Below, in pieces: positions 40,477 through 59,415 of a stretch of 64,000 nucleotides of DNA. The DNA is from Lophium mytilinum. Lineage: Eukaryota. Within the stretch, counting starts at the first letter, position 1. Each line of letters starts with the position of its first letter. The position numbers and the translations under genes were made by a program. The stretch is taken from the NCBI GenBank assembly GCA_010093605.1, contig MU004193.1, forward strand, positions 343,321-407,320. Reading direction: 5' to 3'. The notes beneath the pieces were generated by a model. It saw nothing but the letters and a program-made list of their open reading frames with translations, was not told where the DNA came from and did not search any database.

Positions 40477-42262
40477 CCCTATATGGCTGCTGCTAGCCAG
40501 GCATTGGAGATAGAAGAGTTTGATCTGGAGCGTGGCCTTGATATTGCCGAAGCAACAGAAAGTGCCACCAAGGGTAGAGTAGCTCAGCTACAAAGGCAGC
40601 TGTCGGATGCCTCGCAAGATATTTCTCGCCTAGAGAAAAAGGAGGCCGAACTTCGCGATCTCATGATCAGCAGTGCAGGTACGCAGTAAACAGCGGGTCC
40701 AGTAATCATTCAGGACTTCTCCGAATATTTGACTTATCTTGATATTCAGTTCTTAAAAGCTTCTCATTCGGGCGTTGGATTTGTGACGATACTGCAATAA
40801 GCAAAGCTGTTTTTATCCGGGCACACTTGTATGAGCATTCTTGCAGACCAAGACACTTGTTCACTCCATGAATATTAAGCAAAGCGCAATGACACCATGA
40901 TACTTCTTGCTTCTGTTTCTCTAAGCGAATCAATGTTAGTGCCTTGCTGAAGGTCAAATAAGAGTTTTCCTTTCTCTTCATGTGTTACACATCAGTTCGG
41001 TCTAATTTCATTCATGCGAAAGCGCCCTTGTCTTGTCGATTTCATCACGTTACAGTCAAGTTGGAGATCGTCGTGCACAGCAATGTCTGCCCAGAAACCC
41101 TTCATTTCTGTCTACCATGTAAACACACCAGGATATCCCGCCCCAGAGAAAGCTGGCCTCACACTGGAGGCGCCTTCAAGCCTCCAATCAACCGTCGTAT
41201 TCATCGTCAGCCTCACCAAAATTATGTCGACGACAGTAGTGGGTCCACTTCGAGGGATCCGAGGTCTCTTCAACCTCTTCGGCTACTTCACTCTAAGAAC
41301 CTAATTTTCCATGTCGGCCTTACTAACAAAGCCGCCTCTAGTAGACTATCGGCACTCCTCACAGCAACAAACACAAAAAAGACTTGGGGAAGACAGATAA
41401 CCCGCAAAAGTACCTGGAGTCCTGCCTATATCCTTTCCATCTCAGTAAAGAAACGGTAAAATACCGCGTGCTTTGATTTACTTCGATGCTGTTAACGTGA
41501 AGCAGTATGCCGAGAAAGTCGTGCTATTATCAAAATCTTAACACCATGCCAGGCATCACGATGGAGTTTCTGTAGTGCGGCGACCACCAGACATTGAGAG
41601 GGACAAACATGAACGAGGAGGGAGGGATGGTTGTTATTATCAACGAATCAGGGAACCACAGCCAGACATACCACTAAGGAAAAAGAGGGAACGGGATAAT
41701 CTATTGCCGACATAACGTCGACCAAGAACAAACGACAAGCATGCCCTAGCCAGCGTCCCCCACAAATAATCAAACATAACTTATCCTAAGTTTGAAGAAA
41801 GGGTTCACGCTGGACTTCATAAAGCCCTGGCTTGCAAAAGTTCGTTACCTCGGAGACAGAGGCCCGTCCCATTCTCAGGTAAGGCTGACTCTGGGTACAT
41901 CGGTTCAGTCGTGGGCAATATCACGTGTAAACCGTGAACCTAGGTCCCCTACTCGAATGGAAGAAATAGAACATACGATTGACATACCGTATTCTTGCTG
42001 CCAACCTAGAAGCCACGCTTAGCACGCCAACCTAAGGATAGATTTCCAGCGTATTAGGTCATCGCCAGCGACTTAATTTGTGGACCTGCTGTCCCAGAAT
42101 CAGCCTGACACTCGATCTCCGATCCTCTCGTCTTGCCAGGCTTCCAAGTTAGCAGGAAGAATGCGGTACAGCGAATGATATCAAAGGAACATTGTCGACC
42201 CCCGATTTTCAGTTTCCAGTACAACAAAGAGGCAGCCAGCAATGAGCCGTAATTAAGGCAGA

Positions 42263-43837
42263 TTTCCGGTCAGTTGCGTGCAAAGGGACCTCAGTCTCGG
42301 GAACGTGGACGCAGCCTCTTCCCTACCTGGCTAGTTCGCTCGCTTATAGCCAATTGAATCAGGAGGAAATACGCCTCCCTCAACCTGATCTTCCCTCGCC
42401 TGCATGTTGCTGCAGCATTTGGGGGCAGTGCAAAAGCCTTGCATGTGTTCAGCCAATAAAACTACAAGACGCAGACATCATTCATGTCCGGGCCACAGTG
42501 AGCGAAGTCCGTGATGTCGGTGGGGGCCGAAAGGAAAAACCCTAGAACCATCAAACGATGGTCGATTCCATCAAGAAAAGTTGCAATATCAATAAAGACG
42601 GCCTCGCTCCAGAAGTCTAGCCACTCTTCATGAAGTTTCAGCTCGTTGTTGTAGTGTTTTGAAGGAAAGAAGAATTCCACCAGCGACACGAGGCTTCGCC
42701 TACTGTGGGGCTGACGACTTGGGGGCTGAAGTCTTGGAGCCCCCTCTTGCAACCAATGAGACTATGAGAGCATCGCTCTGAGCCCAGTTTCAGTTCCCAG
42801 AGGCGAGTCGTCTGTGGCAAATGCTGAGCCGTGATTTTAGGGTTGGACTGGTTTGCGATTCGTTGCCTCATTGTTTAGCCGTGAAACAGCTCTTGGCAGA
42901 CACTCACTTCTGATCTCGAATCGGTCTAGTTTTTCCGTCGTGTGGAGTCTAGTTACATCTACACTTTAGCTCAACGACATAGGTTTTCCTCATCGACGGC
43001 CGGTTCCCAATCTTCAGCTAGATTGAGGTCTGGGCAGCGTGAGAAGAATTCAAAGCAAGACAGCCGTACCTTGTTCGCTCAGACCTGCCTCCATATGACC
43101 ATACATGGGATTGGGTACCTGCAATGCTAAAGGTTGGGACACTGCAGTCGAGTATGGGTAAAAATGAGTCATGATCTGAGACGGCTCTCCAAGTTCCCTG
43201 TAAACTGTGCGCTGGAAAATATAGCCTGTTAGAGGGAAAGAAACTTAAGGAAAGTGGGGAAGGGGGGGGGGGGGGGGCCGTTTTTTACCAACTTCAACCA
43301 CCCGTTACGGGCAGATTGATGCAAGGCTGACAAAACTACTTCTCAGCCTCACAGAAATAATCCTCGGCCTGATCGAAATGTTCCTCAGCCTGATCGAAAT
43401 ATTCCTCAGCCTGATCGAAATATTCCTCGGCCTGATCGCATTGGGTCTCAGCCTGATCGAATTGGGCCTCAGCCTGATCGAATTGGGCCTCAGCCTCGCT
43501 GCTCCAGAAAGTCCAGACCCTGCTCACGCATCCAATGGCATCGAGAGACATTTATCCGCACTGGAATTTTAGTTTCTATCTTTCGGTGGTGGACGGGTAC
43601 GAGCTAGGGTGTGCAGCAGTGCCATAAAGCCTTGCATATTTCCGGTCAGATGCGCGACAAAAGGACCTCAGCCTCGTCAGTTTGGACGCAGCCTCGTCTG
43701 CACTTAGTTAGATCGGTATTCTACCACCAATAAGGTGAACAGAAAGTTGCCTGCACCTGACCTAGTTTCCCCTCGCTTGCATATTGCTGCAGTGTGTTTT
43801 GGGGCTGTGCGGGAGCCTTGCTTGACTTTTGACCAAT
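42263..43837. repeat. Diverged ~195-bp direct repeat pair (42263-42457, 43639-43837)
   Basis: Shared blocks tttccggtcag, ggacctcag, tggacgcagcctc, ccctcgc.tgcat.ttgctgcag, agccttgc and terminal ccaat. Confidence 0.8.
43342..43497. repeat. 21-bp tandem repeat (~7.5 copies)
   Basis: ctc(a/g)gcct recurs every 21 bp; minus strand translates to FDQAEEY-like heptads. Confidence 0.9.
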
Positions 43838-57156: not shown

Positions 57157-59415
57157 TTCACGGCTCAGCATACCACAGTGTAAGTCTAAGAAGTTCCAGT
57201 ATGTGAAAATAGAAATCAGGTGCCAGCGACCATCTTACTCTATGGTCGTATCAGTTACAAGGAGATCATACTGCAGTGCTGCCTGGCCTGTGTCCGATAC
57301 GAATCATTCTCACCATCTGCTCACATGGTTGACCCACGATACGCGAAGCGTATGCACTGCCCCAGATTACGGCTCATCAGTTATGGACCTCCGTACCTAC
57401 GTGGTGAGTTTGAGATTTGATAATCGGGTGAGAGTAACCTGCTTTTAACGTCATTGGTCCCAAGCCGTTCCCCAGATTACGGCTCATCAGTTCTGGTGCG
57501 CCGTACCTGCGTGGTAAGTTTGAGATTTGATTATCGGGTGAGAGCAACCTGCTTTTGATGTTATTGGTCCCGAGCCGTTAGCGAGGGCATTTCTGCGTGT
57601 ACCAGGCACGCCAGGCTACGTCCATCCTCTTTCTTGGTTGGCTGAACGTATGCTAGGTGTTTTGCACTGCCCCAGATTACGGCTCATCCCCCCGCCGCTC
57701 ACTCGCGGCCTGCTGGTCGCCAACTGAGAACTGAAACTTTGTTGCGAGCATCCTACATTCGATATTACTGGTCGCCAGTTGTTCGCATTTGATCTCGTCG
57801 TTGTTCGCAAAGGCAAACTCTTACCAAGAACGGCTTGACCGGTCAGTCTGCCACCCTGTCATGTCACTGCTTCAACTCTCCTTCGCCCGGTTGCAGGAAC
57901 TGACCAGGGGCGTGCTAGGCACCAGCATGGGGGCCTCGATCTACTCCAGTCTGAATTTGTGAACTCGATGATTGGACGTGAATGTAAATCACGGCTCGTC
58001 TGAACGTTGAGGCTCTGTAAGAAAGGATCGCTCAAGAGACCTAATTTGGGAGTGGGCTGCACTCTTGCTGTGTAATTGGTTGGGAGCATAGACTCTACCG
58101 GTGAACTTTTCAGAGAATCTCGAGTCTGCCTTGCGCTCACCTACCTAGTCTTGTAATTGGACGAGGGATGTGCAACTCGTACAGCTCAGGCAAAATACGG
58201 CTTAGTAATCCGACGGCATGAAAATTCGAGGCTTCCTCGCATGCGAATAGAGAGCCAGGTGCCAAGAACCCTCACGCAGCCTGATTGGCCTTGAGCAACC
58301 CTTTGGGTCAGCCTTGAAAATCTGCCACGTCTCATAGCCGCGATCTGGACCGCTGACCACGAAGGCAGTAGAATTTGGGGTTTGTACCTTTCGGACACCC
58401 GATGAGTCCTCAAGCACCGCTCATCCCATCCCCTCTCTCATCCATTCTGAGAGCTGGAGGTTCGGATTGGGGGAGCCTTCTGTCAATGTGATGGCTGCAT
58501 TTAGTCAAATATGATGTAACTGCGAAGAGTTTTGCAGAAACCCACGATGCGAAAGCTGCCCCGGGATAAATCCGTTATTCTAAGCGCGCACAAGGGTGCG
58601 TGTCCTGATCTTATGGTTCTGTTGACTGCCCCGTGTGCCCCTTCTGGTATTACGGCCCATCTACTGCGCCACGATGACCGCTTGCCTCCGAGGTCTGGCC
58701 TTGAAACTGAAAACTGAGTTCTAGCAGCCGTCTTGCAGTCTTATTGGTGGTGAGTGGGCCTTCCTGCAATGCCGCGTGCGCCATCGCTTCATTTCTGCCA
58801 TCAAATGAGGTAAGATTACGGCTCAGCTGCGGCGGTGGGGGCGAGGTGATGGGGACTTGAAAACTGTGTGGAGGCAACTGTCTTGCAACCTGATTGGTTC
58901 AAAAGAGCCCCGGTGCGGGACGCCGTGTGGTGGTGTGTATTTTGCCAAAAGCGCAGGACGGTTTGATAGGAAAAATAAGATGGTAAACTATGTTGAAAAG
59001 TCGCATTGCAAGACAACTACGGCCTTTGAGCCTGGTATGGTGATATTTGATTGCTTCGAGTGTACTGAACGTTCTGCGAGGACAACTTGAATGGGTCCAG
59101 GCATCAATGACAAGGCTGAAGTCCGCCAGCTGAAAGCTCCAGCCAGGCACACAGGTCACGTGCCGTTCGGAGTTGGGGTGAAGAGGTTGGAAGGCTGTGA
59201 ATTTTTGGAACCTAGTTACCCCTAAATGGTCATGATAAGCCGAAAAGTATTCAGGTTTCACCCCATGATCTTATTGGATGACAATAAGATAAGTGAATTA
59301 CGGCTCAGCTAGACCAAGATGCCGCTCACCGCTACTTACTGTGGGAAAATCATGCCCCATCGATCTCGCAAATTTGAAAACTGGGCGCGAGCAGCCATCT
59401 TTCAACTCCATTGGT
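57157..59415 (+). promoter_or_regulatory. Right cluster of nine tripartite motif modules (plus orientation)
   Basis: ATTACGGCTCA-like cores at 57157, 57366, 57476, 57676, 57988, 58194, 58649, 58815 and 59297, each followed by an AACTGGG/AATCGGG-like box and an ATTGG-like box. Confidence 0.7.
57361..57580 (+). repeat. 110-bp tandem duplication of one module
   Basis: 57361-57470 and 57471-57580 are near-identical. Confidence 0.92.

Follow-up and report, generated by a model that had tools for sequence, protein, structure and literature searches.

Outward-pointing arrays of a bipartite sequence module bracket a SNF2/NACHT gene pair in Lophium mytilinum and may act at its borders

Transposon ends with multiple sites are known from the subterminal repeats of CACTA/En-Spm elements, the long modular terminal inverted repeats (TIRs) of Foldback elements, Mutator elements and Tn7/Mu-type ends, and the giant Starship elements are defined by a DUF3435 tyrosine-recombinase "captain" at one end. 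Opposed polar barriers include Tus-Ter in E. coli, RTS1 and the ribosomal DNA (rDNA) Ter in fission yeast, and Reb1 roadblocks in yeast. The inverted-repeat (IR) boundary elements of Schizosaccharomyces pombe carry TFIIIC B-boxes. The boundary inverted repeats IR-L and IR-R are reported to flank the silent mating-type domain of this yeast (PMC7474672). Here, a stretch of 64,000 nt from L. mytilinum (contig MU004193.1; called the window, in which all coordinates are given) was analyzed, in which two arrays of a short bipartite module bracket a pair of genes, one for a SNF2-family helicase and one for a NACHT/zinc-finger protein. Where the arrays are compared below with transposon ends, fission-yeast boundaries and polar barriers, the analogy is one of layout.

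The module was about 95-130 nt long and consisted of a 5' box, (A/G)ATTACGGCTCA(G/T)C, then a spacer whose length varied (about 25-70 nt), and finally a 3' box. The 3' box spanned about 45 nt, had the approximate sequence TTGAAAACTGGGTG.GAGCAAC..TCTTGCA.C...ATTGGT and ended in ATTGGT. The two ends of the module were not inverted repeats of one another. The left array (42.17-44.10 kb) contained 5-7 copies, all on the minus strand, and the right array (57.16-59.42 kb) 9-10 copies, all on the plus strand. Every copy lay on the same strand as the inner gene next to it and so pointed away from the gene pair, and the arrays began 240-360 nt past the stop codons of the inner genes. The distance between copies was mostly irregular (110-1050 nt), with unique DNA in between. 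Both arrays were located in unusually long 3'-3' spacers, the left one reaching from the end of a plus-strand open reading frame (ORF) at 41456 to the SNF2 stop codon near 44339, and the right one from the NACHT stop codon at 56797 to a minus-strand neighbour, of which a contig from the sequencing run X3 (described below) extended down to 59787.

With at most one mismatch, the 5' box ATTACGGCTCA was found 9 times in the 64 kb compared to 1.26 ± 1.16 times in shuffled sequence, and 0 of 100 shuffles reached 9. All nine matches fell within the arms, three in the left arm on the minus strand and six in the right arm on the plus strand. When two mismatches were allowed, 13 of the 21 matches were in the arms and all 13 faced outward, in agreement with the initial annotation of this DNA, which had put all left modules on the minus and all right modules on the plus strand. 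A full-length profile detected module copies only in the arms and on the expected strand, with none elsewhere in the 64 kb at E < 1. This profile had been trained on 11 of the copies that it finds, hence a cross-validation with profiles of one arm was performed. The profile from 8 right-arm copies recovered 4 copies of the left arm, all on the minus strand (E 4.9e-7, 1.7e-4, 1.5e-3 and 0.018), and nothing below E = 1 outside the arms, and at E < 0.01 the profile from 3 left-arm copies recovered 5 copies of the right arm, all on the plus strand. The cross-arm profiles matched the opposite strand only. The copies are given below, from left to right.

42167..42255, minus strand: outermost left-arm copy, exact 5' box; right-arm-only profile E 1.7e-4
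42422..42470, minus strand: 3'-box remnant with a 36-nt linker block (TTGGCTGAAC..GCACTGCCCC); inverted match to 57638-57673, 31/36, E 1.1e-4
42744..42839, minus strand: left-arm copy, 5' box ATCACGGCTCA; right-arm-only profile E 4.9e-7
43525..43577, minus strand: weak, marginal 3'-box remnant; full profile E 0.086, one-arm profile E 0.13
43723..43762, minus strand: left-arm copy, 3' box alone; E 7.3e-4 (outside the training set), right-arm-only profile E 1.5e-3
43830..43890, minus strand: degenerate left-arm copy, 5' variant ATCACGACTCA (2 mismatches) and shortened body to AATTGGTC; recognized by eye, missed by nhmmer
43974..44097, minus strand: innermost left-arm copy, exact 5' box at 44094-44084, 3' box ending ATTGGT; E 1e-14 (in the training set), right-arm-only profile E 0.018
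57158..57239, plus strand: innermost right-arm copy, degenerate (TTCACGGCTCA); E 4e-4 (outside the training set), one-arm profiles E 2.2e-3 and 0.016
57362..57578, plus strand: two tandem 110-nt copies (57362-57468 and 57472-57578); 89% matches by Tandem Repeats Finder (TRF), 91% over aligned columns
57638..57782, plus strand: 36-nt linker block followed by a module copy (57673-57782), exact 5' box at 57676
57985..58088, plus strand: right-arm copy (ATCACGGCTCG), by 5'-box scan and profile
58191..58298, plus strand: right-arm copy (AATACGGCTTA), by 5'-box scan and profile
58648..58757, plus strand: right-arm copy (ATTACGGCCCA); left-arm-only profile E 1.9e-4
58812..58907, plus strand: right-arm copy, exact 5' box, by 5'-box scan and profile
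59294..59422, plus strand: outermost right-arm copy, exact 5' box; left-arm-only profile E 1.5e-4

No match to the 3'-box pattern was obtained in a metagenome scan, and the 5'-box string occurred in the searched literature only in unrelated primers.

The initial annotation had further described the two clusters as inverted homologs that also match in longer blocks. The strings which it quoted were all present where it had placed them. Its longest block, 42422-42456 against the reverse complement of 57638-57673, was identical at 31 of 36 positions (E 1.1e-4) and was the best pairwise match between the arms; by position, it is the linker that leads from the ATTGG of one copy to the 5' box of the next. 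The two shorter pairs carried less weight. The 12-mers at 42306 and 57613 agreed at 11 of 12 positions, yet about 21 such pairs were expected by chance, and they were not collinear with the 36-nt block, the order being different in the two arms; in total, 103 inverted 12-mer pairs of this grade were found, well over the chance expectation of about 21. The match of 43310 to 58307 required a 2-nt gap and represents part of the 3'-box motif. The left arm had 18 11-mers in common with the reverse complement of the right arm, compared to 0 in direct orientation and 1.4 ± 1.6 (maximum 6) in 200 shuffles, while word sharing of control regions of the window was at chance level. After the 17 module intervals were masked, inverted sharing was no higher than direct sharing (17 vs 31 words at k = 9; 5 vs 10 at k = 10), and GGGGCAGTGCAAAA was the sole residue common to the arms. 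No similarity between the arms at the protein level was detected by tblastn of the left-arm ORFs. In this way, word sharing was far above shuffles but formed no collinear extended diagonal, and the inverted homology of the clusters held for a short module family and not for extended sequence.

Identity by column was determined on 10 copies, with one member of the recent tandem pair dropped. The mean pairwise identity was 0.83 in the 5' box (13 columns) and 0.54 in the 3' box (46 columns), compared to 0.29-0.34 in the spacer and flank columns, for which 0.25 was expected from composition. The ATTGG columns were about 0.8-0.9 identical; read on the opposite strand, this pentamer is a CCAAT box. 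The exact 11-mer was retained in 7 of the 13 copies with a recognizable 5' box. The identity of copies within arms (0.53) was close to that between arms (0.48; permutation P = 0.06). As copies were about equally diverged within and between arms, the module family is old, and the boxes have persisted nonetheless. The 110-nt tandem pair at 57360-57579 (89% matches) was the sole recent duplication; the left arm also had a duplication at 1377-nt spacing. Saturated spacers together with persistent boxes in an old family suggested constraint as on binding sites rather than neutral decay, and the column pattern implies constraint on the boxes.

Based on these results, the arrays are tentatively read, with a probability of roughly 40%, as host cis-element arrays of a locus-specific module that grew by local duplication, are held under constraint and may act in an orientation-dependent manner at the borders of the gene cassette, a function that we infer. 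The boxes would be protein-binding sites, the 3' ATTGG as a CCAAT box and the 5' box, at 11-13 nt, as a site of suitable size for a zinc-finger or similar factor. The arrays would then work by their orientation at the outer cassette borders, as a boundary or as a barrier to read-through, and the mirror layout could reflect either a requirement for polarity or a single inversion, which would have carried the whole pair and part of one original array, with the pair staying head-to-head. A history of inversion fits a functional or a neutral array alike. With CCAAT-box cis-elements the module shares a near-invariant ATTGG on its own strand, and binding of the CCAAT complex is putative. None of the familiar transcription-factor sites (Ste12, Reb1, Myb, XlnR, AraR and others) is known to fit the boxes.

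The initial annotation had offered paired boundary elements as one possibility, and the contrast between boxes and spacers and the placement of the arrays in the bracketing 3'-3' spacers would fit that description. The likeness to IR-L and IR-R lies in paired inverted elements around a chromosomal domain that would act via bound proteins. Differently from IR-L and IR-R, the arms were not long near-identical repeats and had nothing in common once the modules were masked, the B-box was at chance level, and the bracketed domain has expressed genes. Matches to the TFIIIC B-box with at most one mismatch numbered 8 compared to 6.3 expected, 1 of them within a module. With polar barriers to forks or transcription the arrays would share short, repeated, orientation-dependent protein sites in two opposed groups, but no sequence resemblance was found and the analogy is by layout alone.

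Several points weigh against border elements under constraint. The variable spacers align poorly, so that their identity values indicate just roughly "random" columns. Ordinary transcription-factor sites need no uniform orientation, and the polarity may come from tandem duplication and one inversion. The cassette is also partly decayed, with a broken NACHT frame and a transposon in the shared promoter (see below), which is awkward with strong current selection on its flanks.

One alternative is a neutral relic: an old minisatellite-like array that lay downstream of one of the two genes, was divided by a single inversion and is decaying without function. This would account for the head-to-tail order within each arm and the one surviving 110-nt tandem pair, and divergence equal within and between arms is as expected if the array predated the split. 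Reasoned from the coordinates, one inversion yields the present layout with the pair still head-to-head, and the lack of anything in common between the arms besides the modules agrees with it. However, neutral decay should hit all columns alike, and the 5' box was 0.83 identical compared to 0.29-0.34 in adjacent columns, with the exact 11-mer kept in 7 of the 13 copies. A degenerate minisatellite would likewise share head-to-tail units and a tandem pair 89% alike, but spacing here was irregular and unique, conservation was limited to two boxes, and the family occurred in two opposed arrays. Decay without function is therefore rather unlikely, on the persistence of the boxes, though it deserves serious consideration.

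A further explanation, also raised by the initial annotation, concerns a large (about 17 kb) old or novel mobile unit with the arrays as subterminal binding sites and the two genes as cargo or machinery. Read data came from three sequencing runs. X1 and X2 are from one sample, possibly the source of the window, so that contigs of X1, a DNA run, are not independent of it, and X3 is a third run. X3 contigs carried GT..AG and CT..AC joints, thus X3 was derived from spliced RNA. The features between the arrays are as follows.

Coding sequence ~48103..44339, minus strand: SNF2-family helicase gene with a RING-like segment and Helicase_C (Pfam); multi-intron, CT..AC joints in X3 contigs
48439..52841, no strand assigned: MULE-like transposon relic, AT-rich, resembling the product of repeat-induced point mutation (RIP), in the shared 5' intergenic region; 135-nt TIRs 98% complementary, 9-bp target site duplication (TSD) CCTCTCACC
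Coding sequence 53338..56797, plus strand: DUF7708 / NPHP3_N-NACHT / winged-helix / C2H2 gene (Pfam); seven GT..AG introns in an X3 contig, frame broken near 54584

The SNF2 and NACHT genes were divergent, head-to-head, and shared their 5' intergenic region. Pfam matches in them were to SNF2, Helicase_C, DUF7708, NACHT, WHD and C2H2 only, and the NACHT protein contained about five C2H2-like fingers. The intron-like joints of both genes were present in X3 and missing from X1; therefore both genes are transcribed and spliced. The X3 NACHT contig started at 52847, just past the right TIR of the MULE-like element. This element was unrelated to the modules, and its TIRs contained four GTACAGT subrepeats. 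X1 contained extra contigs on these TIRs as well as joined forms lacking about 4.1-4.2 kb, and shorter relatives of the element are probably present elsewhere in that genome.

The NACHT frame was broken near 54584 (54560-54600), where an N-terminal ORF of 355 aa stops at 54623 and a C-terminal ORF in another frame is open from 54457. The Mytilinidion ortholog aligned gap-free over the frame switch (residues 340/341), and the closest annotated protein, P0122, skipped about 25 nt at the break and was without the conserved "LLAQLLQQDKG". The X3 NACHT contig was as long as the genomic interval after removal of its 7 introns, and so this contig from RNA seems to hold the same frame break, which would be a genuine frameshift or else an error common to both sequences.

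The best named relatives of the SNF2 exon and the last NACHT exon were from L. mytilinum itself (96% and 100%), followed by Mytilinidion resinicola, whose proteins were 85-86% identical. Among 62 named NACHT matches (one unnamed row and 16 animal zinc-finger-only rows were dropped, as were unnamed SNF2 rows), at least 38 had a SNF2 match of the same species on a contig of equal size; this is a lower bound, as the best 120 of 237 SNF2 matches were used. Consecutive locus tags were found in at least 12 assemblies, namely Fusarium solani, Fusarium proliferatum (two), Xylaria curta, Xylaria arbuscula, Pestalotiopsis fici, Neopestalotiopsis clavispora, Xylariales sp. No.14919, Penicillium concentricum, Apiospora arundinis, Neocucurbitaria sp. 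and Oculimacula yallundae. The pairing spanned four classes of Pezizomycotina (Dothideomycetes, Sordariomycetes, Eurotiomycetes and Leotiomycetes). Over the 38 pairs, the identity matrices of SNF2 and NACHT were correlated with r = 0.88, which was reached in 0 of 999 Mantel permutations. A quickly built maximum-likelihood tree of the NACHT proteins from all 38 pairs required 5 changes of class label, compared to a minimum of 3 and a shuffled mean of 11.3, and 0 of 200 shuffles were as low; the tree was built for NACHT alone and the SNF2 side was compared by identity matrix only. Some oddities were seen in the tree, such as Tricladium with Apodospora. Judged from these protein comparisons, the SNF2/NACHT pair is a conserved old cassette with mostly vertical inheritance and not recent cargo. 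In some relatives (Oculimacula, Periconia and Alternaria; about 1550-1580 aa) a protein-kinase domain was present instead. No description of the SNF2/NACHT pairing was found in the searched literature. C2H2 fingers are reported in 34 NOD-like receptors (NLRs) of Sordariales in passages of PMC12258605, and these passages do not mention a helicase (PMC12258605). When metagenomes were scanned with the 304-aa SNF2 exon, none of the 39 pattern matches was confirmed.

The layout itself speaks for a mobile unit, in that protein-sized motif copies, uniform in orientation within an end and inverted between ends around internal genes, resemble the multiple transposase-binding sites of the multi-site transposon ends mentioned above. 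Conservation of the boxes fits protein recognition, and the NACHT protein has its C2H2-like fingers. Several pairs on different contigs were also seen in some genomes (Apiospora arundinis and Xylaria arbuscula), although the locus tags suggest different assemblies for some of them. However, the hallmarks of such an element were not found. When 41400-42320 was compared with the reverse complement of 59250-60200, the best score for an outer TIR was 12, which was the 5' box itself, and the next three were 11, compared to a mean of 11.9 and a top of 16 in 100 shuffles. Visual inspection of the sequence outside the outermost modules (about 42167 and 59422), where no clear edge is definable, revealed no direct repeat on the flanks. 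No transposase or recombinase was detected among 91 arm ORFs or, by Pfam, in the inner genes, with the RIP-degraded interior at 48.6-52.7 kb outside the scan, and no Pfam match to the DUF3435 of Starship captains was obtained among the ORFs scanned in 41.3-59.9 kb. Compared to a compact transposon end, the arrays extended over about 2 kb and had unique spacers 100-500 nt in length, and there was no sign of other copies. The inner genes are spliced, of host type and mostly vertical, with a phylogeny largely congruent with taxonomy, and the bona fide transposable element at this locus, the MULE-like relic, does show clear TIRs and a TSD. X1 contigs continued without differing bases from the arms into the genes and the flank, a weak point since X1 is possibly the source assembly. 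The proposal of a large mobile unit was thus left unsupported, and we regard it as improbable.

The strand agreement between copies and the adjacent gene, together with array starts so soon after the stop codons, could also point to RNA-level elements in rare read-through or extended 3' transcripts, either as sites for RNA-binding proteins or as signals of termination or processing. No conserved structure supported this. RNAalifold gave 0 consensus pairs on 11 copies, and a search of 36-64 kb against Rfam found no match at E ≤ 1. A small potential hairpin of the 3' box, formed by GCA-N7-TGC in some copies and by GGCGAT..ATCGCC in one, was rejected, as its pairs occupied different alignment registers. 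The X3 contigs with the spliced genes stopped short of the first module, at 44315 and 56804, though these contig ends are not transcript ends. Over most of both arms, the cover by X3 contigs was little or none and was uninformative on expression, silence or transcript ends. A role in RNA has a small probability, somewhat below that of the mobile unit.

A bolder proposal joins the arrays, the SNF2/RING helicase and the NACHT/zinc-finger protein into one self-contained three-part cassette, in which the zinc-finger tail would read the oriented border boxes of its own locus, either as a so far unrecognized kind of self-marking element of filamentous ascomycetes (domesticated or cryptically mobile) or as an immune-like element of DNA surveillance. 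By the zinc-finger recognition code, fingers 3-5 would read approximately A-N-G-G-C-G-N-A-G, and this agreed with ACGGCTCAG in the 5' box at 6 of 7 specified positions, an agreement estimated to be non-significant given the registers available. This proposal is a long shot.

Independent insertions of a short non-autonomous element, like a short interspersed nuclear element (SINE) or a miniature inverted-repeat transposable element (MITE), with a target or orientation bias for these spacers, would explain discrete units of about 100-130 nt with conserved ends and would find company in another short dispersed repeat of the left arm (42490-42700), but are very improbable, as the ends were not mutual inverted repeats, no copy lay elsewhere in the 64 kb, the spacers between boxes varied (about 25-70 nt) and were unalignable, unlike copies of one element, and, differently from a tRNA-derived SINE or a structured RNA family, there was no Rfam match, no tRNA-like feature (0 genes by ARAGORN), no consensus fold and a B-box at chance level.

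Other features were recorded in the left arm. The dispersed repeat at 42490-42700 (about 200 nt) was matched by several different X1 and X3 contigs at 80-95% likeness, with sharp loose ends at 42490-42494 and differing flanks; it looks like a dispersed short repeat that is present inside transcripts too. A 99-aa ORF in it (42465-42761, minus strand) had one weak match among 1.84 billion representatives, to the Peptidase_S74-bearing P0001 (E 2.7e-4), which was judged uninformative, and no relative was found by a word-indexed search of longer proteins. At 43342-43496, a 21-nt tandem repeat (7.4 copies, 86% matches) was read on the minus strand as a heptad-repeat ORF of 71-72 aa (EEYFDQA-like, ATG near 43551) with three sub-threshold coiled-coil-type Pfam matches. 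This was one of the 91 arm ORFs of at least 40 aa; the other 90 had no Pfam match at E ≤ 0.01. X1 contigs broke at a run of 16 G (43262-43277) beside this repeat. The arms are weakly indicated to be single copy, X1 depth across them not being equal to copy number.

The composition of the window resembled that of a filamentous ascomycete, with genic parts of about 50% GC and AT-rich blocks of 25-30% GC at 1-23 kb and 48.4-52.8 kb. The larger block (1-23000; 24-31% GC) was TA-rich, as in RIP-degraded repeats, and switched abruptly to about 50-65% GC at 23 kb. At its border, a 65-nt inverted pair (23282-23346 and 26741-26805; 77% complementary) enclosed a GH16/PIR-repeat gene (23801-25717). Tandem repeats of 120-121 nt and 24 nt (38595-38907 and 36398-36517) were found within long minus-strand ORFs without a Pfam family, which probably encode repeat-containing proteins of unassigned function.

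If the arrays function and travel with the gene pair, they would be a cis component of a conserved cassette of a NACHT (NLR-like) protein and a SNF2 helicase, and a concrete example of polar, repeated elements of boundary or terminator type in a filamentous fungus. If they are private to this genome, they would be an odd old repeat split by an inversion. In either case, the conserved adjacency of the two genes over four classes is a lead for fungal NLR biology in its own right.

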